DNA from: a virus
Lineage: Duplodnaviria; Heunggongvirae; Uroviricota; Caudoviricetes
IMG/VR virus record: IMGVR_UViG_3300045988_147970
Direction: 5' to 3' (one strand)
Length of the DNA: 38,666 nucleotides
Shown piece by piece: positions 522 to 32,371 of the stretch. The notes under the pieces were generated by a model. The model ran no database searches. It was not told the origin of the DNA and worked only from the letters and a program-made list of their open reading frames with translations. The first letter of the stretch is position 1. The number at the start of each line of letters is the position of its first letter. The translations under genes and the position numbers were made by a program.

Positions 522-1007
522 TTAGATAAACTCCTGAGACTGAATATTCTGAGGCTTTAATACTAGCCACGTTCCAGTTGCTTCCGTTATCCAATATGGA
601 TATGGTTGATCATCAAACATTCGCCATCTGATATCACCCTGAAAGAGAAATTTCTCTTCAAGTAAAGGCTTCTCCTGAAAATGAAACATCATCCTTTCAA
701 GAAGAGCCATTACCCATTCATATCCAGTATGGTCCTCACAAAAACCACCTAGAAGAAACTTAACCTTAACTTCATCCGTTTCAGGCTGCATTCCTCCTTC
801 CGTGGGCCTGATAATCACATGAGGAAATTCTGGCGGTTTATCTGGAGATGGTTGTGATTTAGGAGGCAAGTACCCTTTAAATATTGTTGGAACAAACAAT
901 TTAATATCGCTGTCTGTTTCATCATAAGGAGGCCCCTGCACTAATAAATCATGGAAAACCTCATGTTCCAACCGATTTTTTATTGCATCTATCAAAAGAT
1001 TAATCAA
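522..1007 (-). CDS. hypothetical structural protein (possible tail terminator / neck protein by position)
   Basis: 161-aa ORF immediately after the FII-like gene and before the sheath gene; synteny only. Confidence 0.35.
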   Translation of the reverse strand: MINLLIDAIKNRLEHEVFHDLLVQGPPYDETDSDIKLFVPTIFKGYLPPKSQPSPDKPPEFPHVIIRPTEGGMQPETDEVKVKFLLGGFCEDHTGYEWVMALLERMMFHFQEKPLLEEKFLFQGDIRWRMFDDQPYPYWITEATGTWLVLKPQNIQSQEFI

Positions 1008-1348
1008 ATCGGCATTCCTCTGTTAGTATTAACAGTGAGAGTTATTTCCAATACACCAACATTATCTGATACTTCATCAATAATATAATTTTTACCGTTG
1101 ATTTTCATTGACTGGTCTTTGACAGGGAGAACAGGAAAATCTTTTCTTGAAACAAATAATATTATTTGCCCCTGATTTATTCCCTCTGCAAACTCAGCAT
1201 ATGAGCGTTTATTCCGCTCATGAATAAGGTCTGTATCAATAACGGCAAGGATATCCTTGCCGTCTATGTTATATGTATCGGCAAACTCTTTTTCATTGAG
1301 GAATATTGCAGAAATATCTTGCGCTATAACCTCTTTGAAGGAGTTCAT
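1004..1348 (-). CDS. head-tail adaptor protein (lambda FII-like, tentative)
   Basis: 114 aa; position after the major capsid gene; loose pattern similarity to phage head-tail joining proteins; overlapping stop/start coupling. Confidence 0.4.
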   Translation of the reverse strand: MNSFKEVIAQDISAIFLNEKEFADTYNIDGKDILAVIDTDLIHERNKRSYAEFAEGINQGQIILFVSRKDFPVLPVKDQSMKINGKNYIIDEVSDNVGVLEITLTVNTNRGMPI

Positions 1349-1740
1349 TACTTCTTATTACCTTTTTTTTGCGTTGATTTTTTCGCATTACTGGTATCAG
1401 AAGTAGCTACAGATTCAGATGAATCATCAGCAACCGTTTCCTCATTGCCGCCATCATCCTCAAACTCAACCTCGAATACACAGCTACCCGCCTCCGTTCG
1501 CGTAATCAACCCCGCGTCCACAGCATCATTAACAGCAGATGCGTATCCATGCTCAAAAGCTAACTTAGCAGCATCATAGCCCCCGGCCGATGCCAAATCA
1601 CCATCCTCTTCGGTGGCAATAGCATGTCCTGACGCAATCAGTTCGGCAATTCTGGAGTTATCCATTAGCCCATTAAGCAAACGGCCCGCTTTTAGCGAGC
1701 CGTGGCTTATCGTATCAATGTTTTTAATCAGTCTGGCCAT
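1348..1740 (-). CDS. hypothetical head-completion protein (occupies the lambda FI position)
   Basis: 130 aa with an acidic C-terminal tail, immediately downstream of the major capsid gene; synteny only. Confidence 0.3.
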   Translation of the reverse strand: MARLIKNIDTISHGSLKAGRLLNGLMDNSRIAELIASGHAIATEEDGDLASAGGYDAAKLAFEHGYASAVNDAVDAGLITRTEAGSCVFEVEFEDDGGNEETVADDSSESVATSDTSNAKKSTQKKGNKK

Positions 1741-2784
1741 TTAAACCACCTTAGCCACCAGATAGGCATCAGCCACACCAGGATTAGGCAGTGGAGATGA
1801 CTTCATGGCAACATAACGGCCAGCCGGCTTACGAGTTACCCAGGTGTCTGGAACTCGTGGTGACTCAACAATCGTTAGAGTCTTTTCGGCGTCATCTACA
1901 AGCTCTACAGCACCATACAGCATCGTTCCTCGACCAGGAGAGCCAAAGAGGATCTTATCTTCCGGTACTAATGGTTCTGGTTTTCCTGTTTTATCATTGC
2001 GAATAAGTTCGTCGTAACCATAAAAATCGACACCTTCAAGATTGCCATAATGAGTTACGCCTTCTTCTAACTCCTTAGGCTCAATATACCCAAGCTCTTT
2101 TCGGCGATTATCAAGATATTTAGTTACTGCTTCATTTTTAACGAAAGCATCAACAACTTTTGCGCCCATTACGGCAACACGAGGTGTAAAACCTGAAGTT
2201 AGTGATACCCGACGTTTCCAGTTGCGAACATTGACCAACGGATCTGATTTTGCAGCACTCCATAAATCATCACCTGTCAGTTCAAGATATGGTTTATCTC
2301 CTTCCTCTTCAGGCCAAAAATAAACTGTGTCATCCACACCTTCACCAACAATATCAACCTGCCCCGTAAACAAGACTTGTGCACACATCCATTCTTCACG
2401 GCGGTTAACCATTTCATCAAGCTCAAGCAAATCTTTACCTAATTGCTCGGCGGCTCGTTCTGCTGGCGATTTTGCGTTGTAAATATTCTCACCCGGAAGC
2501 CTGTTTAAAAGCAGCTCTGCTGTTGTTACCAAATCAGGTGCAACAAGTGGTGGCTCCAGAGTTCTCGTTACAAAGCCGCGTCGCTCAACGGTTTTTGAGC
2601 CAAAACCTTTACCAACAAACGGAGCCATAGTACGGCCACCGCGAACAAAATCCAGATCAACTTTCTTTGTATTAAAGGTCTGAACACCAGGAAAAAAGGT
2701 ACGAAGAAGAAAACGACGAGCCTTGAAATTCTGAATAACAGGCTCAAGCATTGTACGTCGTTCAAAAATATCAATATTCGGCAT
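1741..2784 (-). CDS. major capsid protein, lambda gpE family
   Basis: 347 aa; size, position and sequence pattern consistent with lambda E-type major capsid proteins. Confidence 0.8.
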   Translation of the reverse strand: MPNIDIFERRTMLEPVIQNFKARRFLLRTFFPGVQTFNTKKVDLDFVRGGRTMAPFVGKGFGSKTVERRGFVTRTLEPPLVAPDLVTTAELLLNRLPGENIYNAKSPAERAAEQLGKDLLELDEMVNRREEWMCAQVLFTGQVDIVGEGVDDTVYFWPEEEGDKPYLELTGDDLWSAAKSDPLVNVRNWKRRVSLTSGFTPRVAVMGAKVVDAFVKNEAVTKYLDNRRKELGYIEPKELEEGVTHYGNLEGVDFYGYDELIRNDKTGKPEPLVPEDKILFGSPGRGTMLYGAVELVDDAEKTLTIVESPRVPDTWVTRKPAGRYVAMKSSPLPNPGVADAYLVAKVV

Positions 2785-2804
2785 AAAAATACGACCTCTT
2801 TATA

Positions 2805-3188
2805 TTATGCAGATGGATTTTGTTGTGCGGTGTTAAGGAATATCCCAACCTTCCGGCAAGCCAGATATACATCGGCAATCTTTGCTGATTCAGGAAGGAT
2901 AACCGCATGTGCATTGAACATTCCGGTCAGCCATGCTGTTCCAACTTGCGCTGAATCAGTCGCATCAATACTGTGTTGAGCGATACAATACGGTTCTTTT
3001 GCCACCCCCTCACCAGAGAGATTTATTGGTGCTACAGTGACAACATTTGTTGTCTGATCAATACTGACAAAAGCAAGCAACTCACCTCGATTTACTTTAC
3101 CGCTGGCAAGTTTAATACTTGTTGTAATTGCTGGCATACCACCAGAAATAATCAGATTATCTGGTTCAAATGAAAAAGACTCTCGCAT
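2805..3188 (-). CDS. head decoration protein (lambda gpD-like)
   Basis: 127 aa between the protease/scaffold and major capsid genes, as for lambda D; weak sequence pattern. Confidence 0.55.
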   Translation of the reverse strand: MRESFSFEPDNLIISGGMPAITTSIKLASGKVNRGELLAFVSIDQTTNVVTVAPINLSGEGVAKEPYCIAQHSIDATDSAQVGTAWLTGMFNAHAVILPESAKIADVYLACRKVGIFLNTAQQNPSA

Positions 3189-3197
3189 AAACTCACC

Positions 3198-4286
3198 TTA
3201 ATTTTTATCGCGGTTTTTAAATACTGACCCAATAACATTTTTTACTACTTCAGCTTGTTTATCTCCGTTGTTTTCTGGTTGATTAACATCAACTGAATCA
3301 TTCACCTCATTTGCGTCTTCTTGCCGTTGATTAAGAAAGTTTTTGTTACGCGCTCGCTCTGCATTCATAATTTCCAAAGCAAGTTCAGCCGCAGAAACTC
3401 CCGTTTTGAATTTTGCATTCTTAACCAGGTCGTCATGACCTGGAATCACGCTATTCTCGATTGTTTCAATGCGCTCGCGTTCTGATTTAACGCCCTCGTC
3501 TTTACCAGCATTAAAAACCTGATTGTATAATTCTGGATGTTTATTTTTTAATTCATCAAGAGTCACAACATCGTCCTCATTTTGTTCATTTAATTCAGTA
3601 GATAATTCATTTTTATTTTGTGGCAACTTTGCGAGCGAATCAGGTAATTTTGAAAACCTTGATGCTTCAAAAGTTATTCCATTGAGCGAAAGCATCCCTT
3701 CCTTTATAGAAGCGGATAAGCGCATTGGTTTTTCAACTTCGTCAGCAAATCCAAGCTCTACAGCCTCTTCTGCATTTAGCCATGTTTCCTGATCCATTAG
3801 TTCAATTAATTTATCCTCAGAAAGCCCTGTTTTCTCCTTATATGCAGATAAAATACTATCTCGTATCTTATCCATCATCTCAGCAATATCACGTAGTTCA
3901 TCCGCATCACCAGCAGCAAATGTCCACGGATTATGGATCATCATCATAGCATTAGATGGGATAACAACTTTATCACCTGCCATTGCAATAATGGTTGCAG
4001 CCGATGCAGCAATACCATCAATATAAACAGTAATATTAGCCTTATGACGTTTTAATGAAGAAAGAATAGCTTGAGCAGTAAAAACAGAACCACCATAACT
4101 ATTAATTTTTACGTTGATAGCATTTGATGATATATCCTTTAATTTATTAACTATGTCAGAAGAAGAAACCTCATCAAATTCGCCAATATATCCGTAGATT
4201 AAAAGTTCAGCCGGAGAGTCATCTTCACCCGTGCTATTTTTTATTTCCCACCAATTAGGCATCATCTGTCTCCATATTTTGTTCAT
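3198..4286 (-). CDS. prohead serine protease (ClpP/S49-like) with C-terminal scaffold-like region
   Basis: N-terminal half carries a ClpP/SppA-like motif (SYGGSV...GIAASAATIIAMAGDK); C-terminal half is charged and coiled-coil-like; lies between portal and decoration genes. Confidence 0.7.
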   Translation of the reverse strand: MNKIWRQMMPNWWEIKNSTGEDDSPAELLIYGYIGEFDEVSSSDIVNKLKDISSNAINVKINSYGGSVFTAQAILSSLKRHKANITVYIDGIAASAATIIAMAGDKVVIPSNAMMMIHNPWTFAAGDADELRDIAEMMDKIRDSILSAYKEKTGLSEDKLIELMDQETWLNAEEAVELGFADEVEKPMRLSASIKEGMLSLNGITFEASRFSKLPDSLAKLPQNKNELSTELNEQNEDDVVTLDELKNKHPELYNQVFNAGKDEGVKSERERIETIENSVIPGHDDLVKNAKFKTGVSAAELALEIMNAERARNKNFLNQRQEDANEVNDSVDVNQPENNGDKQAEVVKNVIGSVFKNRDKN

Positions 4287-5829
4287 TTACCTCAGAAACA
4301 GGAGGCGTAATCAGCCCCAACTCACGGCGAGCATTCTCTTCTCTGCCACAAATTTGTGCGGTTTCTTCCCAGTTAAGACCTGACATTTCAGCCGCTTCCT
4401 TTTCACGGGTAGAGAATGTTTCCTCAACACGCAGTTTTGCAGCTTTGACTTCTTTAAGGGGATCTAATTGGCCTTGTGATGGGCCATACCATTGAGCGCC
4501 ACTCCATGCAGCGCGATATTCAGGCCCATAAAAAAAACCAGGGGCAATAACACGACCTTTAGCAACGGCTTCGGCCAACCATTCCTCATAGATCGGTTGG
4601 CAAAATGACTGAACCATCCAGTCACGTCGCATACGGAACATTTTCCAGGCTTCAAGTAATGCGGCCCTGCTTGCGCTATAACTTGCTGTAAAATGCTTTA
4701 CCAAGAGTTCGTAAGGGAGTTCTAAAGCAGCCCCAATTTGACGGCATATGGCGACAACAAAACCATCAAATGCCGTATTTGGTCGCCCGGGATTTGCTGT
4801 ATCTATCGACTCACCTTCACCCAAACTTACTATGGAGCCATTCCCCATTTCTTGGGTGTTATCATCATGGTTATCGATCTGCTCGTACTGAGGGATACCC
4901 GATTCACCGACTGGTCCATCAGGAGCGTCTGTTTTAATAAAGACAGTAAACATCCCTGACACAACCGCAGCAACCAATTCAGCATCGGTGTATCGTCCTA
5001 ACTGCTTCAATGCTTCAATAACAGGAGCAAGGACAGGAACGCCACGACGTTGCCCAGGCCTTTCAAAATCCTGCATGACATGCAGAATATTTCTTCTTCC
5101 TGTTTTACTCCCATATGCGGGAATACGTTCCCACTTGCGGGTTACAAAACCAGAAGTCCCGGCTGGGTGATGTTTTGCAACCCAGTACGCCACAGGCTCG
5201 CTAAATTCACCAACCTCTACGCCACCGTAAAGATTTGGTATAAAACGATCCTCTGGATTGCAAACACGATCACCTTCAATTAAATAGACGCACAAATCAT
5301 ATATAACACCCTTACGCTTAATAACTGGTAGCGCAGCAAATATATCGCCAGATGTTAACGCAGATATTTGGACCAATGATTGCAATTGTCCAAAAGTACA
5401 CATTCTTGATGCATCACAATTTGGAGAATCAGCCCATAATCTAAACTCACGCTCAACATGCTTTTCCCATGCTCGCGCTTCTTCCTGCGTCATCCCCAAG
5501 AAATCGGCATCAATGTTCGCATTTAGTTTTAAACCGGAACCAACAACGTTTGTCCTGATAGTTTTTATTGCGCCAACCGATAGCGGGTTTCCCATGAAGA
5601 GATCACGAGAACGCTCACGCAATTTATCTATATTTTTAACAATATCATCATCAGGAGAACCAGCTTTACTAAACCAACCCCTTAATGATTTTTTATGAGT
5701 GCTTGCACCATGACGTGAATATCCAAGGTTATTAATACCTTCAAGTGCTTCTAACCGTTTTCTTGCCAAAGCTCGATTTAATGCCCTCTGAGGTGAAAAC
5801 GGCGCAATAACTCGATCAAGAATATTCAT
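4255..5829 (-). CDS. portal protein (lambda gpB family)
   Basis: 524 aa, immediately downstream of the gpW-like and large terminase genes; size and pattern typical of lambda-family portals. Confidence 0.8.
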   Translation of the reverse strand: MNILDRVIAPFSPQRALNRALARKRLEALEGINNLGYSRHGASTHKKSLRGWFSKAGSPDDDIVKNIDKLRERSRDLFMGNPLSVGAIKTIRTNVVGSGLKLNANIDADFLGMTQEEARAWEKHVEREFRLWADSPNCDASRMCTFGQLQSLVQISALTSGDIFAALPVIKRKGVIYDLCVYLIEGDRVCNPEDRFIPNLYGGVEVGEFSEPVAYWVAKHHPAGTSGFVTRKWERIPAYGSKTGRRNILHVMQDFERPGQRRGVPVLAPVIEALKQLGRYTDAELVAAVVSGMFTVFIKTDAPDGPVGESGIPQYEQIDNHDDNTQEMGNGSIVSLGEGESIDTANPGRPNTAFDGFVVAICRQIGAALELPYELLVKHFTASYSASRAALLEAWKMFRMRRDWMVQSFCQPIYEEWLAEAVAKGRVIAPGFFYGPEYRAAWSGAQWYGPSQGQLDPLKEVKAAKLRVEETFSTREKEAAEMSGLNWEETAQICGREENARRELGLITPPVSEVNEQNMETDDA

Positions 5830-6065
5830 AAATCTCTTATCACCACTCGTTTAATTCGTGGGCCTCGGCGTATACCTGCTGATAATCTTTCTACTTCATT
5901 ACGCCAGTAATCCATCTCTTTTCTGACTTCTGATAAATCCGCACGAGTTAACTGCCGCGTACCAAATTTATATGACTGACCGCCAATAGCAATAGCGCGA
6001 TATGCTTCCCGCCAGACAGATAACATCTCTCTGGCTTCAGTCAGAGAAAATGCTTCATTGTTCAT
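5826..6065 (-). CDS. head-to-tail joining protein gpW-like
   Basis: 79 aa between large terminase and portal as in lambda; C-terminal RRGP motif shared with lambda gpW. Confidence 0.6.
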   Translation of the reverse strand: MNNEAFSLTEAREMLSVWREAYRAIAIGGQSYKFGTRQLTRADLSEVRKEMDYWRNEVERLSAGIRRGPRIKRVVIRDL

Positions 6066-6076
6066 TTATATTTCCT

Positions 6077-7933
6077 CTATATGGTTACGCCTTTACTTAT
6101 AACTCTACGGCGTCTTCTACGTATACCTGACGAGTTCTGCACATACACATTACCTCGCATTTCCTGTTCGGCAAGCCAGTTAAAATTAGGGTTCAGAATT
6201 TCCATCGCGGCAGTTGCATAGTTACGGCAATCAAGAGGCTCGTTACGCTCGTAGACTTTCACCCACTTTTCTTTTGTCTGCCCATTTTTATATTCAAATA
6301 TTTTCTTCTCTGATAATAATCCTTTAAAGTATTCGGTATCATATCCTCTGTCAGAATCTAATGGGAAATGCATATAACCAGGACCAGGATCATGTAGTTT
6401 AATTCTTGCCATGATGGTCCCTTTACCATCATCAACCCCCAAATTAAACAACATAGCACCCACACGGTTATTATTACTTGGCTTTCCTATAAATGGTAAA
6501 CCTACCCCACCACGCCCCCTGATAGAGTATATTCGCCTTGATTCTCTCGGCTTAGTAAAGCGATATACCTCTGTCGTAAAATGCCCACCAGAGTCAATAC
6601 AAACGGAAGAAATCTGTAATTTTCGACCGTCACGGAATGACCAGCTACGGAGTAAGTATTCATCAAGTTGTTTCCAGACAACATCTTGTGCGGGATCACC
6701 TGGGAATATTTTATATTCTATCCCCCATGACTCCTTACCTTTTCCCCAACCGACCAATTCACAAACTAAATACGTGTCCTGTACGTCAACACCAGCACTT
6801 AACAATAAAACATCATCTGGTAAAAACTCTTCAAACCTTATTCTGCGTTGCAACAAGTATTCAGGATCGATATCGTCTTTAGCATCCTCTTTCCATGGCT
6901 CACCCAGCTTAAGGTTAATAAACTCCATTAATCCATTTTTATCGCGGTTTCTGGTTGCTTCCGTAAATTCTTCAACCAGCTCTGACAATGCAACCCACGG
7001 GGAGTAAAGACTGTTAATATGAAAACCAACAATACCTTTAACTCCAGTATGTTCAGCTATCCATACCCCCTTCGCCAACCAATCAACGTCTGGTTTACCA
7101 GATCCGCGCATAATCCCGCCGCACTCACAGCACTCATATCTGGCCGTTTCCGGTAACGCCTCACCTGAATCGCTCTTATCCCATCTGACTTGCGACCATT
7201 TCATCACCTGCATGGTGCCACAACATGGGCAAGGAACATGGTAGTAACGCTGATCGGAGAGCTTAAACCACTTGTGGATTTTGCTCGTTTCCTCCAAAAC
7301 AGGAGTAGAAACAAAAACTTTCTTACGATTATGAAAGTTGGTAGTACGCTGAATACCTAGTTTTAGTGGGTCGCCCTCCTGCGTCACACCGTAACGATCA
7401 ATCTCATCAGCTAACAGTATTCGAATTGGCCTGGATGCAAGACCTGCTGGGGAATTAGCACCAACAAGTGCTATATATCCACCAGCGTAATGCTTCATAC
7501 GTATAGTCGTGCTGGACTTTTTGGCTGCACCGCGCCCCTCTTTCCCTTCATGCAGCTTGTGTTTCAAACCAGGGGAATATTTGAACGTCGGATCAATACG
7601 CTCTTTTGAAAAAGCCTCAGCCGCCTCTACCGTTGGATAAATCATCAACTGAGGAGATGGCTCCTGATCTGCAAAGTAACCCATAACATTTAGCTGTAAT
7701 TCGGATTTACCAATTTGCGAGCTACATTGCATCACTACTGTTTCTGTATCAGCGTCACCAATAACATCCATTGGTTCACGCAAATATGGCACTCGGCTTG
7801 TACGCCACGGCCCTGGCTCTGGAGACGTTCCCGGCGCTACATGACGATACTTATCAGCCCATTCGGAAACAGTTAGCCGTGATTTAGGGCGAAGCGCACG
7901 GAAAAAAGCGGTGCTCCATACTGTTTCGCCCAT
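6077..7933 (-). CDS. terminase large subunit (lambda gpA family)
   Basis: 618 aa; N-terminal TVSEWADKYRHV resembles lambda gpA AVEWADANYYLP; Cys-rich CPCCG motif aligns with gpA CPHCG. Confidence 0.85.
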   Translation of the reverse strand: MGETVWSTAFFRALRPKSRLTVSEWADKYRHVAPGTSPEPGPWRTSRVPYLREPMDVIGDADTETVVMQCSSQIGKSELQLNVMGYFADQEPSPQLMIYPTVEAAEAFSKERIDPTFKYSPGLKHKLHEGKEGRGAAKKSSTTIRMKHYAGGYIALVGANSPAGLASRPIRILLADEIDRYGVTQEGDPLKLGIQRTTNFHNRKKVFVSTPVLEETSKIHKWFKLSDQRYYHVPCPCCGTMQVMKWSQVRWDKSDSGEALPETARYECCECGGIMRGSGKPDVDWLAKGVWIAEHTGVKGIVGFHINSLYSPWVALSELVEEFTEATRNRDKNGLMEFINLKLGEPWKEDAKDDIDPEYLLQRRIRFEEFLPDDVLLLSAGVDVQDTYLVCELVGWGKGKESWGIEYKIFPGDPAQDVVWKQLDEYLLRSWSFRDGRKLQISSVCIDSGGHFTTEVYRFTKPRESRRIYSIRGRGGVGLPFIGKPSNNNRVGAMLFNLGVDDGKGTIMARIKLHDPGPGYMHFPLDSDRGYDTEYFKGLLSEKKIFEYKNGQTKEKWVKVYERNEPLDCRNYATAAMEILNPNFNWLAEQEMRGNVYVQNSSGIRRRRRRVISKGVTI

Positions 7934-7938
7934 GAGGT

Positions 7939-8499
7939 TTATTCTTCCTGCTTAATAAATCGGGATTCCTGGAGCGCCTGAAGCGCAAAATTAATCTCGT
8001 CTTCAATAATGCGTTCGATCTCCCTGGCTGTTTTGCCTTCACAACGGGGAGCTGCTCTTGGAGCAATACTAAATAAGCGGCTACGCAATTCATTAGCTGC
8101 CAGAAATGCATCATCCCTGACCGCATCTTTAGCGATGAGAGAGCCTTCCTTTTCTTCAAATTCAAGGCGTTTCAGCTTTGCCTGATAAATTTTTTCTGCG
8201 GTCTTAGCCTTGTTGAATTGCACCGCAACACCGGAAGTACCACCAGCTAATCCGGCATCATCAGCGGGTAACTCTGGTTGTTCCGAAGATATCCCATGCC
8301 CTCTTTTTCCATTTTCAGCAGATACCTCACGACCAACCTGTCGGCTCGCTTCATAAGCCGCACTGGCTTTATCAAAATCCAGCTTGCCGCTTTTCAGCAC
8401 TGGAATGCGACCGGAACGACAGAGCTTCGTAACCATTGCCGGAGAAATACCTTTCCGGCGAGCAAACTCTGACTTACTGACGATGGCCATTACTTGCAA
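7939..8499 (-). CDS. terminase small subunit (Nu1-like, N-terminal HTH)
   Basis: 186 aa directly upstream of the large terminase; N-terminal helix-turn-helix-like segment (SKSEFARRKGISPAMVTKL). Confidence 0.6.
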   Translation of the reverse strand: MQVMAIVSKSEFARRKGISPAMVTKLCRSGRIPVLKSGKLDFDKASAAYEASRQVGREVSAENGKRGHGISSEQPELPADDAGLAGGTSGVAVQFNKAKTAEKIYQAKLKRLEFEEKEGSLIAKDAVRDDAFLAANELRSRLFSIAPRAAPRCEGKTAREIERIIEDEINFALQALQESRFIKQEE

Positions 8500-9080
8500 C
8501 CATTAGCAAGATACTGAACAAATCCCTCATGCGTTTCATGCGCGTCGTGGTACTGACGATAAACATCCAGCAACAATGCAATTTCCATATCCGTCGCGGG
8601 AATACGTTCTTTATCAATAGCCAGGTACTTAATTTGAACAACAGGGGAAGAATTATCGTCTTCTTCCTGCGGCTGTTCATCGCTTAACATTTCGTCAAGC
8701 TCTGCATCATTAAACCCAAGCAGATCAATATCAAAATCATCATCCATTAACTCTTTGACTTCTTCGGCCAGAAGCTGCATATCCCAGCCAGCATTTAAGG
8801 CCAGCTTGTTATCTGCAATCCTGTAAGCCTTCTTCTGTTTTTCAGAAAGGTTACTCAACCGAATCGCCGGAACTTTATCCATTTCCAGAATTTCGGCTGC
8901 TGCAAGCCGACCATGCCCCGCAATCAGTTCATTCTTTTCATCGATCAGCACAGGATTAGTGAAACCGAACTCACGGATACTGTTCACCAACTGTTCAACC
9001 TGCTCATCTGAATGAGTCCGTGAATTTTTGGCGTATCTGAGCAGCTTACCGACTGGTAAATATTCGATTTTTAGAGCCAT
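8490..9080 (-). CDS. ParB-like nuclease domain (ParB/Srx N-terminal domain) protein
   Basis: 196 aa with ParB N-domain box (LIAGHGRLAAA); stop overlaps the small terminase start; paralog of 11747..12370. Confidence 0.7.
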   Translation of the reverse strand: MALKIEYLPVGKLLRYAKNSRTHSDEQVEQLVNSIREFGFTNPVLIDEKNELIAGHGRLAAAEILEMDKVPAIRLSNLSEKQKKAYRIADNKLALNAGWDMQLLAEEVKELMDDDFDIDLLGFNDAELDEMLSDEQPQEEDDNSSPVVQIKYLAIDKERIPATDMEIALLLDVYRQYHDAHETHEGFVQYLANGCK

Positions 9081-9637
9081 TTTTTAACCGCCATAACACA
9101 ACAGGTTAAAGAAAACTGTTTAACTTATTGATACTAAAAGAGAAAAATGACGATCTTTTTACTCATAAAAAATCACACAAACCAGCATAATCATCTGATT
9201 TTATTAAGTTTTTATAAGTAAAAAGGATCTTGAGATGGTGTTTTGGTTAAAAGATTGGATGTATTTGCATGATTTATAACGATTTTTATCAGAACAACAT
9301 CACATTGGTTAAAGATCTGCGCGTATCTTGATGATCTAAAAGAAAATTTTCTACTTTCTTTTTACCAGCACAAATACAGCAAAAAATCACGTTTTCCCGA
9401 TATTTTTCAATGAGATGAGTAAATTTCTTTTACCGCAACTTTTAACCTAACTTTTTTCACGTTTAGCTAGCCGAACATCGGGGTTCGAATGACCCGCATC
9501 CAACGCTTTTGTCCAGAAGGACCCAATTCTGCCGGACGATGAAACGATGCTCGTGCACCCCCACAGACAGCCAGCGAGCGACGCTACAGAACACAGTGAA
9601 TACACTCTGCATAACAACACCATCAACCACACGATGA

Positions 9638-10357
9638 TTAACGAGAGAAGGTCTTGGAAAGAATGTCATCAATAGCCTTTGTGACTTCATCAGCAAACGC
9701 ATCCTCACCAGCACGCAGCGCCACGCCATGCCAATCAAGACGCTGCGAATAGTTAGGTTGCTGGATAAACGTAAGGATCAACGTAGGACGCCGCCCAACG
9801 CGCTGCCAGACGCCTGGTTGAAGCGGGTTACTTGTACCAGGTCGAACAACAAAAAACTCCGTAGGCTTGCCCTGACGGCGATTTTGATGCGCATCTCGCT
9901 GAACTCTTAGGCCAGATAAGACCTGCTGTAATTGCCCCCGCGAAATATTCCCGTATTTGTCCAGCTTTGCGCCGGGACCAGGAGCAATCTGCCAGCCGTT
10001 AGGCAAATATCCACCAGCCCTTAGCGCCCCTTCTGAGCGTTTGTACTGTCGTTGGCCACCTTCGATTTGCGGAGTCAACGTTACAGGGGCTGGCGTTCCT
10101 CCCCATTCACGAGCATACACAATGGCTGTAGGATCACTCTTCTTTGCGGCCAAAACGTAAGTAGAGTTCTGAATCCACGGCGTGGGCCTGTCAAATACCC
10201 GATTAATTTCATTCTTAATCGCAGCCTGAGAAGCCTTTGCCGTTCTGGTTGCCGCAAGCGCCATTGCGAACGGCAATTCGCGTTCTTCAAGGCGCTGGAG
10301 TTGTCGTTGAATATCCTGAGAAGAAAAATCCATCTTTATCTCAATTCTGTCAGCCAC
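9638..10357 (-). CDS. hypothetical protein within the ParB/methyltransferase cassette
   Basis: 239-aa ORF co-oriented between the ParB-MTase fusion and the terminase-proximal ParB gene; no motif recognised. Confidence 0.35.
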   Translation of the reverse strand: MADRIEIKMDFSSQDIQRQLQRLEERELPFAMALAATRTAKASQAAIKNEINRVFDRPTPWIQNSTYVLAAKKSDPTAIVYAREWGGTPAPVTLTPQIEGGQRQYKRSEGALRAGGYLPNGWQIAPGPGAKLDKYGNISRGQLQQVLSGLRVQRDAHQNRRQGKPTEFFVVRPGTSNPLQPGVWQRVGRRPTLILTFIQQPNYSQRLDWHGVALRAGEDAFADEVTKAIDDILSKTFSR

Positions 10358-13978: not shown

Positions 13979-14244
13979 TCATCATCTCCTGCCGCACATA
14001 CAACCTCACAAAAAACATCAGCGGAATGTTTCTTTTTGAATGAATGGCGCTCAAAACCGCACTCAATATCAGGCGCAAAAACATCCACCACATACGGTCT
14101 TTCAGAATGTTTGTTTTCCCAACGATAAACCGTAGTGACGTTGAAATGTTTTAACGCTTCACGGTACTCAACGCTGCCCGTCAGGTTTTTTGAGGTCAGG
14201 TATTGCAGGAGGTTTTTTACTACTTCACGGTCTTGTACTTTCAT
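13975..14244 (-). CDS. hypothetical protein, first gene after a duplicated operator-bearing promoter module
   Basis: 89-aa ORF; GGAG RBS; preceded by the ~104-bp module that is duplicated upstream of the DUF3560-like gene. Confidence 0.35.
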   Translation of the reverse strand: MKVQDREVVKNLLQYLTSKNLTGSVEYREALKHFNVTTVYRWENKHSERPYVVDVFAPDIECGFERHSFKKKHSADVFCEVVCAAGDDE

Positions 14245-14251
14245 CGGGTTA

Positions 14252-14355
14252 TCTCCGGTTTAACCAGGGCGGGTATCGCTCGGTTTCGGGTATAATCATA
14301 GGAAATTTTTTCCCACCTGCAAAGCACTTTTTATATAAATATATAATTATATAAT
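14252..14355. repeat. ~104-bp duplicated promoter-leader module, copy A (copy B at 21832..21935)
   Basis: ~93% identical to 21832..21935; each copy sits directly upstream of a minus-strand gene start and carries the AGGAAA-N3-TTTCC operator-like motif and AT-rich TATATAA repeats. Confidence 0.6.
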
Positions 14356-14356
14356 T

Positions 14357-14944
14357 CTATGCCACTTGCCAGAGAGCATCATGCAACTGGATACCTCCAT
14401 TGCACTGGTTGCCCCAGCCATGCCAACCATCAGGTAAATCACCGCGAGCAAACAGCTCAATACGAGGAACATCACCTAACAGCCTTACCAGCTTGTCACG
14501 AACCACATCAGGCTTCCGAGAATGCTCCAGACGAGGCGATGTAAACGACTGAATGATCCCCGCATCAAGGCGGGTCGGCAATTTGCCTTTTACCGCAAAC
14601 AAGCAATCTTCACTGTTTGCACGAGTCATATGCCCCATCCCCATCACCAGCTTATCTGGTTGTCGGCTACCACATTTGTTCCATGTGAAGCCCTTCATGG
14701 TCATAAGCCTGAATCCCCATGCTTTCACCACCAGCAACGCTTCTTCTGGCTGAGTCGGAACCCACCACATGGCCAACAAACACGATTCAGGATTAGCAAG
14801 CTGCCAGACAGGAATACGAGCAATATCCTCAGCTTTCATCGTTGGATACTTAAAACCAGCTCCACGATTCCCATCCTTACACTTATCTTTGTATTCCCAG
14901 GGGGGATCTGCATAAATCAGATTAAACAATGCAATTGCCTCCAT
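14357..14944 (-). CDS. N6-adenine DNA methyltransferase, MT-A70 family
   Basis: N-terminal IYADPPWEY (DPPW catalytic motif) is the MT-A70 signature; 195 aa. Confidence 0.8.
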   Translation of the reverse strand: MEAIALFNLIYADPPWEYKDKCKDGNRGAGFKYPTMKAEDIARIPVWQLANPESCLLAMWWVPTQPEEALLVVKAWGFRLMTMKGFTWNKCGSRQPDKLVMGMGHMTRANSEDCLFAVKGKLPTRLDAGIIQSFTSPRLEHSRKPDVVRDKLVRLLGDVPRIELFARGDLPDGWHGWGNQCNGGIQLHDALWQVA

Positions 14945-15010
14945 GTTAGTTGTGCCTCCGGCGCTGATCTCCGGCAGTCATAACGCTGGCCAGCTCTACA
15001 GCAGACACAA

Positions 15011-15043
15011 CGAAAAGGGCACTAACCAGACTGATTAATGCCC
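15011..15043 (-). terminator. possible terminator downstream of the tRNA
   Basis: Minus-strand hairpin GGGCAUUAA...UUAGUGCCC (one U-G wobble) followed by a U-rich tract; approximate. Confidence 0.3.
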
Positions 15044-15252
15044 TTGCCTGTTGTGTGCCGGATATCGCCCGACAACGCTGTTTTGGTAACACGGCTACAG
15101 TTCCGTGCCGCTCCAGCTTTTACCCCTTTGCGGATAACAGGCCCTGCCTGTAACTTAGCCCCACGTTCGCCCGAAATGCGCACCAGGCACGCATAAAGAT
15201 GAGCACGAAGGAAGTAACTCCACCGCGCTTATCTTTATGTGTGAGAGTGAAT

Positions 15253-15328
15253 TGGTGGCCCCTACCGGATTTGAACCGATGACCGTGCGATTATGAGTCG
15301 CCTGCTCTAACCACTGAGCTAAGGGGCC
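15253..15328 (-). tRNA. tRNA with anticodon CAU, ileX-like (tRNA-Ile2 or Met); 3-prime CCA encoded
   Basis: Reverse complement GGCCCCTTAGCTCAGTGGTTAGAGCAGGCGACTCATAATCGCACGGTCATCGGTTCAAATCCGGTAGGGGCCACCA folds as a cloverleaf; the first ~42 nt match my recollection of E. coli ileX. Confidence 0.85.
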
Positions 15329-15497
15329 ATATTTGATCTGTTTGTCTGGTGTGGCGCCGCGCACGAAAATCCCAGCCAATAAATTCAGGATTTTTGGGCG
15401 CGGCGGCATATCAGACAAACATGGTTGATGCGTGCGCCCATGAGAAAAGCGCATAGAATGTTGTAACTATATATTTATATAATTATAGAAATATATA

Positions 15498-15707
15498 TTA
15501 CTTTCGGCAGTTGATTTCCCATGCCCTGTTATGAGCCAGAATATCTTTCTTTGTCTGGCGGTCCATAACATCGATGTCGTGATCAGTCAGGTAGATGGGC
15601 TTTACCCAATCACAGGCGGTATCAACCACCACCGGGACGCTTCCACGACTCCCGCAGCTCGCGATCAACATCGTCATCAGCCATATGGTTAACACTCTGC
15701 TGTACAT
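15498..15707 (-). CDS. o-spanin (Rz1-like outer-membrane lipoprotein)
   Basis: 69 aa with lipobox LIASC; reading frame overlaps the 3-prime end of the i-spanin gene. Confidence 0.55.
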   Translation of the reverse strand: MYSRVLTIWLMTMLIASCGSRGSVPVVVDTACDWVKPIYLTDHDIDVMDRQTKKDILAHNRAWEINCRK

Positions 15708-15900
15708 TCCCCACCTCTTTTGTCACTTCTATACGCCGCTCCGCAGTGGCTTTTACAGCGGCTGCATTCTCATTAATGCGCTGCTTTTCAGCTTCATCTT
15801 CGGCCTTTTCTCGCCCCTTCATACGACCAAAACCAAACGCACCGAATGCAACCAATATAACGGTGCCGATAAATGACAAAACGGCTTTCAAACCAGTCAT
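15622..15900 (-). CDS. i-spanin (Rz-like)
   Basis: 92 aa, N-terminal TM helix then charged coiled-coil; immediately downstream of the endolysin. Confidence 0.55.
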   Translation of the reverse strand: MTGLKAVLSFIGTVILVAFGAFGFGRMKGREKAEDEAEKQRINENAAAVKATAERRIEVTKEVGNVQQSVNHMADDDVDRELRESWKRPGGG

Positions 15901-20036: not shown

Positions 20037-20402
20037 TCACTTCAACTCCTCCCGACGACGTTCCTGAAGCTCTAGCATTGCGGCTCGGAAATCCTGCCAC
20101 CATTCCTCATCTGCAACGGGGGTGTTTCGCTCCAGCACCTTGTCCGCATCAGCGATCAGGTTTGCCAGACTCTTGTCTGAAATCTTCGTTACCGGAGTCG
20201 TTGGTTGCTCAACCTGCCCGATAGGTTTTATCGTGCTCAAAAGGAGGCGACGGCTGGAAAGTGGCGACCCACAACGGCGCCCATCTTCCTTGCGATATGT
20301 TTCTTTCGGACCAACACACCAGGTTGTCGGCGTTTCGCGTAACTTCACTTTTTTCTCACCATCAATGGTGATGATTATTCCGGTATGGGTTTTGATGCTC
20401 AT
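20037..20402 (-). CDS. hypothetical protein
   Basis: 121-aa ORF in the operon. Confidence 0.3.
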   Translation of the reverse strand: MSIKTHTGIIITIDGEKKVKLRETPTTWCVGPKETYRKEDGRRCGSPLSSRRLLLSTIKPIGQVEQPTTPVTKISDKSLANLIADADKVLERNTPVADEEWWQDFRAAMLELQERRREELK

Positions 20403-20680
20403 GCCACAGCCCCTCTCAACGGCTTAACTTTGGCTAATAAGGTGTTAAACAACATGGAGTTAGGATTCATGCCAAATGGCAATTCCGGTTTAGCGGAGTA
20501 GTACAGGCAACCATTTATTTTCCTGGTTGTTATCTGTCCTTCGGCAACCATGCTTCTCAGTCTGCAACGCATAGAGTTCTGCGACACACCAATGTGCTCC
20601 GCGATTACGTCCACTTTTGAACATGGGTGATCGGTCAGGAAATTAATCACATCTTGGGGGTTAATAATTTTGCGTTTCAT
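20399..20680 (-). CDS. small putative winged-helix DNA-binding protein
   Basis: 93 aa; VDVIAEHIGVSQNSMRCRLRSMVAEGQI resembles a wHTH recognition region; AT-rich promoter-like sequence upstream. Confidence 0.3.
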   Translation of the reverse strand: MKRKIINPQDVINFLTDHPCSKVDVIAEHIGVSQNSMRCRLRSMVAEGQITTRKINGCLYYSAKPELPFGMNPNSMLFNTLLAKVKPLRGAVA

Positions 20681-20757
20681 TGTCGAGGCGTCCTTATAAA
20701 TTTATATAAATATATAATTCTATATAAGGCGGGAGACATCCCGCCGTAGGCTTACTG

Positions 20758-21825
20758 TCAGGCTTTCAATAGCGATTCTTTCAGATATCGGGCATCAGCC
20801 AGGGCGTTTGGAGTAATCTTGCGAACCCATGCATTACGGGTTGGACTCCACTTAAAGGCGCGTGATTTAAGCAGCGAACGAATGTTTGCCTCTGGTTTGC
20901 CTGGGAAATAAAACAGGATGCGGTTATCCTCTGGATCTATCTCCATAGAAAAGCCGTCGTATTCTTCGCGCTGTGCTCCTGTTACAGACTTGACCGATTC
21001 AAGCTCCTTAATACGGCTCTGTAGTCGTTTGATTTCGGCGTTATTGTTGCTCAGTGCGTATGAAGGGAATCCGATGTGCCCACAGAAATCTCCGGCCAGT
21101 AACTCTTTGGCTTCGCTTTCTGTAAACCTGAGATCGATTAATGCAGAAAGCTGCTGTAATTGGTCTTTTTTGTATTTGCGAATGGCCTTATTTGCGGCCT
21201 TCATTTTGACGTGTGACTTCATGCAGCCTTGCAGCTTACGAAGCAACTTAAATAGCGCATCAGGATCATCAGACGAAATTCCATTACGACCAACACCTGC
21301 GGCTTTGCTCTCGTAGTGTGATGCTTTACTTTCGCATTCAACAAACGCTTTTCTTAATAACGCATCAGCTTTAGACAAACGGCGGCGATGGCCTTTCGCG
21401 CTATAATGGTCAACTAAAATCGGCTGGCCTAACGGGATCACATCCAACAGGTCATGCGCTCGCTTATGCGCTACCGCACCTTCTTTTCTGGCTTTTTCTG
21501 CACGAGCAATATATCGGGCAAGACGCGCGTTCTGGCGTTCCTGATAGGTGTTTACGTAATCATCTCCGCGCTGCTGCTGTTCAAGCCATGCTTTGCGCAG
21601 ATCTTCTGTTACGTCCACCAGCTCCGCAGGGATACAACCAGTTTGGGCTTCATAAGAGTAACCATCCTCATAGATACGCCCATCATCTTCAACAAAGAAA
21701 AAGGTTTCGTGCTCATCGCTTTTGACCATACGACCATTAACATGGCGTAATAGGTAGCCAGTATCAGTGCTTAACAAGCTGTTAGGGTTGTTGATCCAGT
21801 CAGAAATAATTACTTGTTTATTCAT
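20758..21825 (-). CDS. DUF3560-like protein with N-terminal extension
   Basis: Start at MNKQVII (residue 51 of the track ORF) with GGAG RBS; motifs GQPILVDHYSAKGHRRR, SSDDPDALFKL, KAANKAI, DFCGHIGFPSYALSNNNAEIKR, FKWS match my recollection of DUF3560. Confidence 0.5.
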   Translation of the reverse strand: MNKQVIISDWINNPNSLLSTDTGYLLRHVNGRMVKSDEHETFFFVEDDGRIYEDGYSYEAQTGCIPAELVDVTEDLRKAWLEQQQRGDDYVNTYQERQNARLARYIARAEKARKEGAVAHKRAHDLLDVIPLGQPILVDHYSAKGHRRRLSKADALLRKAFVECESKASHYESKAAGVGRNGISSDDPDALFKLLRKLQGCMKSHVKMKAANKAIRKYKKDQLQQLSALIDLRFTESEAKELLAGDFCGHIGFPSYALSNNNAEIKRLQSRIKELESVKSVTGAQREEYDGFSMEIDPEDNRILFYFPGKPEANIRSLLKSRAFKWSPTRNAWVRKITPNALADARYLKESLLKA

Positions 21826-21831
21826 CAGATT

Positions 21832-21935
21832 TCTCCGGTTTAACCAGGGCGGGTATCGCTCGGTTTCGGGTATAACCTTAGGAAATTTTTTCCCACCCGT
21901 AAAGCACTTTTTATATAAATCTATAATTATATAAA
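21832..21935. repeat. ~104-bp duplicated promoter-leader module, copy B
   Basis: See copy A; upstream of the DUF3560-like gene start at 21825. Confidence 0.6.
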
Positions 21936-29272: not shown

Positions 29273-29854
29273 TTAGCACTCACCAATTAATCGTACATAA
29301 GACACAGGCTGGAAAGCACCGACAATACCAACACCACCTGAAACATTGGTTGCTTGCGAAAATGTAAATAGTGTTCTTGCCGACTTTGCACTCTTGATAC
29401 TTCTTAACGTATCCTCCAACATCTCTTTCGAAGGAACAGCACCATCAAAAGAGTTAATCGAAGCAACAATTGAGGCTGTATATGGTTCGCCAGGTGGTGA
29501 TGTTTCAAACCATTCTGTTATGTTTACCTCTCCACCCAAGCTATTTACTACATCTTCAACCGCTGCCCTTGTACCCTTTATTCGCTTTGTTCGTATTATT
29601 GATTTAAAAACAGAACGCTTTAACGATACAGGCCAACTATCCCTCCATGTATCAGCATTCCATTGCCAAGCTAAATGATCGAGAACAACTGAGTCCAGGT
29701 TATCAACAACGCTATATATTTCTGTCTTATATATTAAATTGTTAATTGCTTGTAGTTCATCATCAATAGCTTTCGACATAGCTATCACGTTGGGATCGCT
29801 AGCTAAGTTAGGAGGTAAAACATCCAACAAGCTAACATTAAAGATATCAGCCAT
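29273..29854 (-). CDS. tail/baseplate protein, P2 gpI-like
   Basis: LDHLAWQWNADTWRDSWPVSLKRSVFKSIIRTKRIKGTRAAVEDVVNSLGGEVNITEWFETSPPGEPY aligns closely with my recollection of P2 gpI. Confidence 0.8.
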   Translation of the reverse strand: MADIFNVSLLDVLPPNLASDPNVIAMSKAIDDELQAINNLIYKTEIYSVVDNLDSVVLDHLAWQWNADTWRDSWPVSLKRSVFKSIIRTKRIKGTRAAVEDVVNSLGGEVNITEWFETSPPGEPYTASIVASINSFDGAVPSKEMLEDTLRSIKSAKSARTLFTFSQATNVSGGVGIVGAFQPVSYVRLIGEC

Positions 29855-30971: not shown

Positions 30972-31288
30972 TCTCTAACTCCTATCACAAGTTTTGGCCT
31001 AATAAAACCATCAGAAACGTCCGTTCTTTCAAAAGTAACAGAATGGATAATCGCTCTAGGCTCAAACTCACTAATTTTTTGAATTATTTCTCGTGTTGCT
31101 GTAGCAATAAAAATTGGACTAGAGCTATCAACAAGACTTGAATTAATTCCTAATTTTCTGGCATATGGTACAGTGCCAATTTGAGTATTAATAATAGTAG
31201 AGACATTTTGCAAAACTTCTTCTACAACTGTTTTGGGCGACCAATCAATCGAGTAAGAAGGTGATGATATGGTAAACGTATTATTCAT
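30968..31288 (-). CDS. baseplate wedge protein, gpW/gp25-like
   Basis: 106 aa; size and position match P2 gpW / T4 gp25 family; weak pattern similarity. Confidence 0.55.
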   Translation of the reverse strand: MNNTFTISSPSYSIDWSPKTVVEEVLQNVSTIINTQIGTVPYARKLGINSSLVDSSSPIFIATATREIIQKISEFEPRAIIHSVTFERTDVSDGFIRPKLVIGVRE

Positions 31289-31752
31289 AATAATTTACCT
31301 AACGCACTTCTAGTTTTTGACTCTATATTGCCAGCAATATCAACTAATGCTTCTTTCAGAGAGGTCTGTCCGACTTCCTGTAATTTAATGCCGACGATAA
31401 TCACTCGTGGATTCCCAGTTGGACCGAAATAAGTCCATGATTCCTCTATATCTGTAATTATAAAATTACCAAAATACTGAATACCAATTACAACAGGATT
31501 TACTTCCTGAATTGATTGCATTGTCCTAAGTAATGAAAGCGCAGCCAATGGAACAATGCCAAGTGTTGTATCCAACCGCATATTAAAACTAACTTCATCC
31601 AGATCTGGACCTATATCCTCCAGAACAGGTTTAAGCCCAATAACATCATGGCGCGCTACACGACGCTTTGACGTCCTTTTAAAATTGTTGAACGTATTCA
31701 CCACTATTGATGAGGCAACAAAAGGCATTGTACCAAGCATACCCACAATCAT
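31285..31752 (-). CDS. tail/baseplate protein (family uncertain)
   Basis: 155 aa between the spike and gp25-like genes; structural by synteny only. Confidence 0.35.
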   Translation of the reverse strand: MIVGMLGTMPFVASSIVVNTFNNFKRTSKRRVARHDVIGLKPVLEDIGPDLDEVSFNMRLDTTLGIVPLAALSLLRTMQSIQEVNPVVIGIQYFGNFIITDIEESWTYFGPTGNPRVIIVGIKLQEVGQTSLKEALVDIAGNIESKTRSALGKLL

Positions 31753-32369: not shown

Positions 32370-32371
32370 AA

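Follow-up and report, generated by a model that had tools for sequence, protein, structure and literature searches.

A plasmid-borne tRNA-Ile2-type gene related to phage P1 trnI, with a probable role in AUA decoding in a ~48-kb phage-plasmid family of Escherichia

A single tRNA gene with the anticodon CAU, lying among the lytic genes of an element that also carries plasmid genes, raises two questions: which amino acid the tRNA serves, isoleucine or methionine, and what the element gains from encoding it. We address both for a 38,666-nt stretch of viral DNA (IMG/VR record IMGVR_UViG_3300045988_147970), referred to throughout as the window. An original prediction for this locus had proposed an ileX-like tRNA that supplies AUA decoding to an acquired, AT-rich tail module, and had named an elongator tRNA-Met as the alternative. 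The explanation that we favor, with a probability of about 0.72, is that the gene encodes a functional phage-plasmid tRNA-Ile2 of the P1 trnI lineage and serves codon compensation for AUA.

ARAGORN finds exactly one tRNA gene in the 38,666-nt window, at positions 15253 to 15328 on the minus strand, which is the orientation of the lytic genes, and places the anticodon CAT at position 34. These coordinates are precisely those of the original prediction, to which our analysis adds the strand. The Rfam tRNA model (RF00005) matches positions 15256 to 15328 on the same strand with 67 bits against a gathering score of 29 (E = 1.3e-12) and is covered from model position 1 to 71 of 71. The tRNA is 76 nt long, carries the discriminator A73, and has its 3' CCA encoded in the gene (...GGGGCCACCA). 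It has the canonical cloverleaf of a bacterial tRNA, comprising a 7-bp acceptor stem, the D-, anticodon- and T-arms, a 7-nt anticodon loop, and the conserved U8, A14, G18-G19, and T54-psi55-C56 positions, with standard pairs at 20 of the 21 stem positions and a G.A combination at 27:43 as the sole exception. A complete tRNA with the anticodon CAU and an encoded CCA, as had been claimed, is therefore present. We reject a pseudo-tRNA, given the intact cloverleaf, the full coverage of the model at 67 bits, and the preserved pairing of the T-stem described below. We likewise reject an initiator tRNA-fMet, which would show a C1xA72 mismatch and, at the foot of its anticodon stem, a run of three G:C pairs; here nucleotides 1 and 72 form a G:C pair, and the last two pairs of the anticodon stem are G30:C40 and A31:U39. 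Assignment of the gene at 15253 to 15328 to the tRNA-Ile2 type draws on ARAGORN and the Rfam model together with its identity to ileX and P1 trnI and its RefSeq label, tRNA-Ile.

As references we used ileX, ileY, metT, and metU of E. coli K-12 MG1655, with ileX taken from NC_000913.3. The window tRNA is identical to ileX at 68 of 76 positions (89.5%), and its identity is 86.8% to ileY and 74% to metT. The match to ileX that the prediction had given for roughly the first 42 nt extends over exactly nucleotides 1 to 42; nucleotides 66 to 76 are identical as well, and the two genes do not differ on either strand of the acceptor stem. All eight differences fall at positions 43, 44, 49, 50, 51, 59, 63, and 65. 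Six of these (49, 50, 51, 59, 63, and 65) account for the T-arm divergence that had been predicted, and the remaining two are at 43 and 44. In the T-stem, G49:C65 of ileX is replaced by A:U, U51:A63 by C:G, and C50:G64 by U:G. Since pairing has been kept through changes on both strands, we expect a working tRNA rather than a decaying copy. Pair 27:43, which is G.A in the window tRNA and G.U in ileX, varies within the wider group: it is G.U in ileX, G.A in P1 trnI and the window tRNA, and A.C in ileZ of Stx phages.

The features by which tRNA-Ile2 is recognized are of the host type. In E. coli, TilS identifies its substrate chiefly by pairs 4:69 and 5:68, and the anticodon stem contributes as well (PMC11947777, citing Ikeuchi et al. 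2005). At these positions the window tRNA has C4:G69 and C5:G68, as ileX does, against U4:A69 and A5:U68 in metT. The anticodon loop, CUCAUAA (CTCATAA in the gene), is the same in the window tRNA, K-12 ileX, and ileY, and the anticodon-stem pairs from 28:42 to 31:39 are those of ileX. None of the features of a metT-type elongator is present, neither the acceptor pairs U4:A69 and A5:U68 nor the anticodon pairs C27:G43, A28:U42, and U29:A41. E. coli ileX thus shares with the window tRNA the TilS pairs 4:69 and 5:68, the loop CUCAUAA, C29:G41, U12:A23, and A73; ileX and ileY are chromosomal, whereas the window tRNA is plasmid-borne and has G27.A43 in place of the G27.U43 of ileX. C29:G41, U12:A23, and A73 are reportedly identity elements for IleRS. 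Pair 27:43 aside, the differences from ileX appear to lie outside the known determinants. Judged by its sequence, the gene is intact and of the ileX-like Ile2 type, and its product would presumably be expressed, modified with lysidine, and charged with isoleucine.

What kind of element carries this gene is apparent from its relatives. About 3 kb around the tRNA is 96 to 100% identical to stand-alone circular E. coli records of 47 to 50 kb, and the same segment is 96 to 100% identical to the Yersinia phages vB_YpM_39, 41, and 44. (vB_YpM_HQ103 is an unrelated phage of 32 kb.) One full-length relative, the 48,644-bp circular record NZ_CP069971.1, carries the plasmid genes RepA, ParA, and a RelE/ParE toxin-antitoxin pair. 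It also encodes an XRE-type repressor with an S24 peptidase domain (a CI/LexA-like repressor), a set of head genes (terminase, portal, ClpP-type prohead protease, and major capsid protein), a contractile tail with a P2-like baseplate, two holins, and a GH108 endolysin; its annotation contains neither an integrase nor a recombinase. This combination of plasmid and phage gene content identifies the element as a phage-plasmid. The window is a 38.6-kb deletion variant of this ~48-kb circular phage-plasmid: its ends overlap by 54 nt and so close it into a circle of 38,582 bp, in which the sheath gene is intact, and 9.3 kb of the full-length element is absent from it, including the genes for the Ref nuclease, the CI-like repressor, ParA, and an ORF6N protein.

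The family is represented among sequenced genomes; our literature search returned no published description of it. The segment from portal to terminase occurs at an identity of at least 99% in 72 of 5,426 complete E. coli genomes, ATCC 25922 among them, and 67 of those 72 genomes contain the tRNA region at a coverage of at least 80%; nearly every family member thus retains the gene. Among the matches listed, the family records are replicons of 31 to 94 kb; one match was counted as chromosomal, and the record that was individually checked is a plasmid. As a separate observation, the deletion junction of the window lies within a 114-bp repeat.

Nearly all genes of the element lie, like the tRNA, on the minus strand. 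Transcription would run from the early genes through two successive holins, the endolysin, the i-spanin, the o-spanin, the tRNA, the MT-A70 gene, and the ParB-like genes, and after these through the terminase, head, connectors, sheath, tube, tape measure, baseplate, and tail fibre to repA. The RefSeq annotation of the relative, Pfam, and PHROGs all agree with the predicted place of the tRNA between a lysis cassette and an MT-A70 gene. Upstream on its strand stand the two holins, the GH108 endolysin, and the i-/o-spanin pair (from the relative's RefSeq annotation and the spanin PHROGs), and its downstream neighbor, at 14357 to 14944 on the minus strand, is an MT-A70 family methyltransferase (Pfam PF05063, E = 3.4e-23; RefSeq). 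The true end of the lysis cassette is position 15498, where the o-spanin gene ends (15498 to 15707, minus strand), and the tRNA begins 170 nt later. The o-spanin is a 69-aa lipoprotein with the lipobox LIASC (phrog_1275, 'Rz-like spanin', E = 3.5e-33; phrog_1026, E = 5.9e-32). Its gene at 15498 to 15707 is missing from the RefSeq annotation and overlaps the i-spanin open reading frame at 15622 to 15900.

Codon usage provides a clear demand for such a tRNA. We counted codons in 47 window genes and, as a host sample, in two 50-kb regions of K-12 with 73 annotated genes. The element uses AUA at 16.6 per 1000 codons and the host sample at 2.7 per 1000, a ~6-fold difference; of the isoleucine codons, AUA accounts for 26.8% and 4.4%, respectively (P = 2.6e-48). 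The enrichment on which the predicted role depended is therefore present. To correct for composition, we set AUA use against how often A, rather than T or C, fills the third position of four-fold degenerate codons. On this scale the element has an observed/expected ratio of 0.83 and the host one of 0.21: a codon that the host strongly avoids is hardly avoided in the element.

This demand is spread over the whole element. By module, AUA per 1000 codons and its share of isoleucine codons are 35.1 and 39% in the baseplate genes, 29.9 and 37% in the head-tail connectors, 15.7 and 27% in sheath, tube, and tape measure, 15.5 and 25% in the early genes, 15.5 and 29% in the plasmid module, 14.8 and 27% in the head genes, 12.4 and 23% in the tail fibre, 7.8 and 13% in the lysis genes, and 7.3 and 13% in the MT-A70/ParB-like block. 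The baseplate gene block at 29273 to 33373 on the minus strand, in which genes were identified from the relative's RefSeq annotation, is the top consumer, with 48 AUA codons among 1,367, 13-fold above the host. Early and plasmid genes still stand ~5-fold above the host, and within the plasmid module RepA reaches 18 and the RelE/ParE-type toxin 32 per 1000.

The proposal that the tRNA serves the tail module in particular can be kept only in part. Its premise is sound, in that the tail and baseplate genes are AT-rich (34 to 40% GC per gene and 37 to 40% per kb, against 47 to 51% around the tRNA), and AUA is indeed enriched, but it is enriched element-wide: the AUA share of isoleucine codons does not differ between head and connector genes together (29%) and the tail genes as a whole (32%; P = 0.67). 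A link to the tail module alone is thus too narrow. Among structural genes only the baseplate is modestly higher, at 39% against 28% in the other structural genes (P = 0.02), and structural genes as a class exceed non-structural ones, with 19.9 against 11.5 AUA per 1000 codons (P = 8e-4).

Two further observations bear on how far any compensation reaches. AUA is scarce in the most abundant virion proteins, with none in the 348 codons of the major capsid protein, one in the tube, and three in the sheath, and this avoidance suggests that AUA is still costly despite the tRNA. AGA is enriched almost as strongly as AUA (9.0 against 1.7 per 1000, ~5-fold; 20.5 in the baseplate block), yet ARAGORN finds no tRNA-Arg(UCU) in the element, the gene at 15253 to 15328 being the sole tRNA of the window; codon compensation is to that extent incomplete. 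Codon compensation is the most widely accepted role of phage tRNAs (PMC10264068), and some surveys find codon adaptation to be no different between phages with and without such tRNAs (PMC4631060).

Where the gene comes from can be read in its T-arm. The window tRNA belongs to a tRNA-Ile2 lineage that is specific to phage-plasmids and was first annotated in phage P1. P1 trnI (P1_gt117), annotated in NC_005856 as 'tRNA-ile2 (CAT)' and '89 pct identical to ileX', is identical to it at 72 of 76 positions, and the tRNA-Ile of the D6-like plasmid pPSS-08-1_2 at 76 of 76. A derived set of nucleotides, namely A43, C44, and the T-stem A49-Y50-C51-G52-G53 / C61-C62-G63-G64-U65, is found in the window tRNA, the D6-like plasmid, P1, and the punavirus Ro157c2, and is lacking in ileX, ileY, Stx ileZ, and the tRNA of Pectobacterium phage Ymer. 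Among 185,579 representative genomes there is no exact match either to the 45-nt 3' half of the gene or to the 29 nt of T-arm and acceptor strand (near-matches would escape both searches), and with these exact patterns no chromosomal donor species of the T-arm variant emerged from that set.

In IMG/VR there are nine matches, eight of them in the ~48-kb family and one in an element of the P1/D6 type, which shares with the window just the 77 nt of the tRNA, at 100% identity, between unrelated flanks. In PLSDB the tRNA occurs at an identity of at least 99% in 43 records of 47 to 49 kb from E. coli and E. fergusonii and at 95 to 99% in 52 P1/D6-like records of 80 to 95 kb; all 95 records are non-mobilizable. 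Identity at 76 of 76 positions without homology of the flanks suggests that the gene has passed between co-resident phage-plasmids by exchange or gene conversion.

Genes of this kind are already known, from P1 trnI and Stx ileZ, and this one is already called tRNA-Ile in RefSeq. [quoted passage not shown] The carriers are nevertheless unrelated, P1-type elements being 90 kb in size and the window family ~48 kb, with a lambda-like head, a P2-like tail, and RepA. The settings of the gene differ as well: P1 trnI comes after tciABC and has Asn and Thr tRNAs in its vicinity, and D6-like plasmids have tRNA-Ile within an Arg(UCU)-Thr(UGU)-Ser(UGA)-Ile array, whereas the window tRNA is a single gene between the lysis genes and MT-A70, and the element lacks the other members of that array. 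The Stx phages 933W and VT2-Sakai carry an ileZ-argN-argO cluster upstream of stx2 and downstream of the late promoter. Their ileZ is likewise an ileX/ileY-like tRNA(CAU) of a temperate phage, annotated as tRNA-Ile and placed in the late region near the lysis genes; it has a putative promoter of its own and has been read as a supplier for rare codons. It differs from the window tRNA in its identity (84.2%), its host-type T-arm, its greater closeness to ileY (U6:A67), and its company of two Arg tRNAs, of which the window element has none though AGA is enriched 5-fold. Finally, the tRNA(CAU) of Ymer belongs to the ileX family and is identical to K-12 ileX at 76 of 76 positions, host-type T-arm included; phage-borne genes of this kind, which occur in virulent and other phages, are often mislabelled tRNA-Met.

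The same distribution could be taken to favor a back-up function, in which the tRNA would sustain translation when host tRNA-Ile2 has been depleted or cleaved, whether by a tRNA-targeting defence or by phage-induced shut-off. A role of this sort has been proposed for phage tRNAs generally (PMC10264068). The distinctive T-arm, found on phage-plasmids only and, by exact match, in 0 of 185,579 representative genomes, would suit it, as would the presence of a 76/76 identical tRNA in unrelated phage-plasmids. Such a back-up is predicted, however, to carry changes in the anticodon loop, and here the loop and the stem pairs from 28:42 to 31:39 are identical to those of the host. The strong AUA excess is, moreover, already sufficient reason for the gene, and we know of no nuclease that targets tRNA-Ile2. 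We regard a back-up function as unlikely.

How the gene might be expressed is suggested by its flanks. Near the tRNA, a strict sigma-70 scan yields no promoter, and a relaxed scan yields a perfect -10 element, TATAAT, at 15487 to 15482 with a poor -35 element. An AT-rich block of four 8-bp units of the form TATAnnnn, recognized from motif counts and the relaxed scan, occupies 15462 to 15497 on the minus strand; it includes the TATAAT hexamer, and its core, TATAATTATA, is present in three copies in the window, where 0.04 would be expected. In the window, the corresponding 20-nt motif clusters only at 14332 to 14361, 15462 to 15497, 20695 to 20724, and 21912 to 21933, each time in an intergenic position upstream of a minus-strand unit, and in the full-length relative parA has additional clusters on both sides, two upstream and one right behind the gene. 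Such an arrangement hints at an operator or a centromere-like site for an element-encoded DNA-binding protein, and at separate control of the tRNA as a unit inside the regulon of the AT-rich block; we tentatively take the block at 15462 to 15497 as a candidate promoter/operator of that unit. An 82-aa protein encoded downstream of parA is a candidate binder of the AT-rich iterons, and Pfam returned no family for it; the MarR-like product of 20399 to 20680 is a second candidate.

Between this block and the gene, an 83-nt near-perfect hairpin predicted by RNA folding (15339 to 15421, minus strand) ends 10 nt before the 5' end of the tRNA, and could act as a processing or attenuation structure. 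The minus strand of 15253 to 15470 folds with -78.1 kcal/mol (z = -3.9). A permissive Rfam scan of 14900 to 15650 identified the tRNA only, the hits of the 83-nt hairpin to miRNA-precursor models all being below threshold. A second hairpin lies 3' of the tRNA, and a terminator-like hairpin with a T-run at 15015 to 15045 on the minus strand (terminator scan and sequence inspection), 208 nt downstream of the tRNA and before the start codon of MT-A70, is a candidate for the end of the transcription unit.

If the gene is indeed a tRNA-Ile2 that compensates for AUA, it would probably be transcribed as a short unit, from the AT-rich promoter/operator block to the terminator-like hairpin before MT-A70. 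Its precursor would be trimmed by host RNase P and 3' processing enzymes, with the CCA already encoded, and host TilS would convert C34 to lysidine by way of the ileX-type pairs 4:69 and 5:68 and the anticodon stem-loop. The lysidine-modified tRNA would then be charged by IleRS and decode AUA. Given suitable timing of its transcription, it would raise AUA-decoding capacity while the element's AT-rich genes are being translated, presumably to the benefit of the element's fitness.

The iterons, the T-arm, and the distribution of the gene can also be joined in a wider proposal, which we consider doubtful. Here the tRNA-Ile2 with its remodelled T-arm would be a self-contained cassette that moves between unrelated phage-plasmids of Escherichia, is wired to the AT-rich 8-bp iteron operator, and has a role beyond codon matching. 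That role could be late translation that is independent of the host's tRNA-Ile2 supply across E. coli, E. fergusonii, and Yersinia pestis; it could be late translation sustained under a tRNA-targeting defence; or it could be AUA decoding reprogrammed in carrier cells.

Expression from the resident plasmid is also the core of another explanation, in which the gene would act in the carrier state and boost AUA-rich genes acquired by host or plasmid, the element's own replication and toxin-antitoxin genes included. The element is maintained as a plasmid (RepA, ParA, RelE/ParE), the genes of its plasmid module are rich in AUA (15.5 per 1000, with 18 in RepA and 32 in the RelE/ParE-type toxin), and the tRNA, preceded by an AT-rich promoter-like block, looks more like an independent unit than like a member of a late operon. 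An AT-rich iteron block also precedes lytic-looking operons, however, and may be a repressed operator, and the tRNA lies between lysis and packaging genes. We think it quite improbable that the gene is kept for the carrier state.

An elongator tRNA-Met, the alternative offered by the original prediction, would require that the transcript escape TilS, keep C34, be charged by MetRS, and read AUG, enlarging the pool of methionine tRNA. That label is the one returned by callers that go by the anticodon: ARAGORN, whose classification had been proposed as a check, finds the gene at 15253 to 15328 and calls it tRNA-Met from the anticodon alone, as GenBank phage records do. Without its modification, tRNA-Ile2 is reportedly a substrate of MetRS. 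A burst of tRNA from a multicopy replicon could outpace TilS, and pair 27:43 and the T-arm, which are unlike those of ileX, may influence TilS. These points are outweighed by the identity of 89.5% to ileX against 74% to metT, and by the pairs 4:69, 5:68, and 28:42 to 30:40, which are of the ileX and not of the metT type. The RefSeq label is tRNA-Ile in 20 of 20 family records among those listed. The NCBI annotation pipeline calls tRNAs with tRNAscan-SE. Version 2.0 of that program has isotype-specific models that distinguish Ile2, Met, and fMet (PMC8450103). Usage of AUG, too, is lower in the element than in the host sample (22.6 against 29.7 per 1000 codons), which leaves no demand-side reason for an additional tRNA-Met. 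The gene is very unlikely to serve methionine.

It is least probable of all that the gene is a recombination target or relic with no translational role, that is, an attachment site for ileX/ileY or a hybrid tRNA left by imprecise excision: a host-identical 5' part followed by a diverged 3' part superficially resembles the junction at a tRNA-gene attachment site, but the full-length relative has no annotated integrase or recombinase, the family records among those listed are plasmids of 31 to 94 kb, P1-family elements carry the same T-arm between unrelated flanks, and the compensatory T-stem changes, together with a 3' acceptor strand (66 to 76) that is host-identical too, point to selection on a working tRNA and not to a junction. 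An attP site in particular was rejected, as host identity covers 42 nt at the 5' end and 11 nt at the 3' end instead of being confined to the 3' end, and no integrase is annotated.

A temperate phage with a tRNA for a rare codon is a case of the textbook type, and the main reading has little import beyond annotation. On that level it matters: the GenBank records of vB_YpM_39, 41, and 44 and many other phage records say tRNA-Met on the anticodon alone, and these labels need correcting. The family also makes codon compensation accessible to experiment, since one of its members is a 48.5-kb plasmid carried by E. coli ATCC 25922, a strain used for quality control. The T-arm serves as a sequence tag by which the element's tRNA can be separated from host ileX and ileY in tRNA-seq, and with this tag one can conveniently ask whether host TilS is able to keep pace with a plasmid-borne substrate.

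Within the family, nine sequences show no variable column in the 76 nt of the tRNA against 19 in 650 nt of flanking sequence; about 2.2 would have been expected in the tRNA, and at this sample size the comparison is underpowered and not significant. Two further family contigs carry one tRNA substitution each, A26T in one and C13T in the other.

AUA, the codon that the element's tRNA-Ile2 (anticodon CAU) is predicted to read, is nearly absent from the genes for the most abundant virion proteins: it occupies 0 of 348 codons for the major capsid protein (1741-2784), 1 of 174 for the tube (36812-37333), and 3 of 396 for the sheath (37350-38537). Low-copy structural genes adjoining these three, in contrast, reach 36 to 61 AUA codons per 1,000. 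This difference between abundant proteins and their AUA-rich neighbors argues, from codon composition, that AUA is still under selection inside the element, its own tRNA notwithstanding.

D6-like P1-family plasmids carry a tRNA-Ile identical to that of the window at 76 of 76 positions, arrayed with tRNA-Arg(UCU), tRNA-Thr(UGU), and tRNA-Ser(UGA) (440-1664 in record L016 and 1940-3164 in record L018), whereas the ~48-kb family to which the window element belongs carries tRNA-Ile alone. Because the plasmid array includes tRNA-Arg(UCU), the rare AGA codon is also covered in those plasmids. AGA is used 5-fold more often in the ~48-kb family than in the host and reaches 20.5 per 1,000 in the baseplate genes. 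The ileX-type tRNA(CAU) is labeled tRNA-Met, by anticodon alone, in GenBank OR545053-OR545055 (4254-4329 in phage record L002) and in many other phage records, and RefSeq labels the same sequence tRNA-Ile; the tRNA-Met label is a systematic misannotation in phage entries. In E. coli complete genomes, 1 of 77 family matches was counted as chromosomal, and no chromosomal record for the ~48-kb family stands among the matches listed.

The tRNA is flanked by two hairpins on the minus strand, one a near-perfect structure of 83 nt (15339-15421) that stops 10 nt short of the tRNA 5' end, and the other a shorter one 3' of the tRNA (15195-15250), itself followed by ~200 nt of noncoding sequence up to a terminator-like site (15045-15015). 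Neither hairpin matched a known RNA family; they may act in processing, in attenuation, or as an sRNA.

An AT-rich motif, TATAnnnn repeated three to four times with a periodicity of 8 bp, is confined to intergenic sites that precede the tRNA or the start of an operon; its core, TATAATTATA, has three exact copies in the window against 0.04 expected. The clusters lie at 14332-14361, 15462-15497, 20695-20724, and 21912-21933 in the window and at 4582-4609, 4655-4682, 5363-5382, and 10261-10280 in the full-length relative L001, where the motif also flanks parA on both sides. From its sequence and placement, the motif looks like a centromere/operator system; the DNA-binding protein that it would serve, putatively encoded by the element, may be a global regulator.

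In the full-length element, three separate operons begin with a 114-bp repeat composed of an AT-rich box, a conserved leader, GGAGA, and ATG (L001 734-846, 10170-10283, and 41871-41985); the window has two copies of it (14240-14353 and 21821-21934). The 9.3 kb between two of the L001 copies (846-10170), encoding a Ref nuclease, a CI/LexA-like repressor, ParA, ORF6N, and others, is missing from the window, as if recombination between the copies had removed it; the window variant is thus without its partition ATPase and SOS-type repressor.

Positions 31-84 recur as the closing 54 nt of the window (38613-38666), and joining the ends at this overlap yields a circle of 38,582 bp in which the sheath ORF (487 aa) is intact. 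The opening 30 nt have no counterpart elsewhere in the window or anywhere in the relative and are therefore probably an assembly or trimming artifact.

An ORF unannotated in the RefSeq entries of relatives (15498-15707, minus strand) overlaps the i-spanin ORF (15622-15900) in a different frame at the latter's 3' end; its product, a 69-aa lipoprotein, is by its lipobox (LIASC) and its match to phrog_1275 ("Rz-like spanin"; E = 3.5e-33) an o-spanin.
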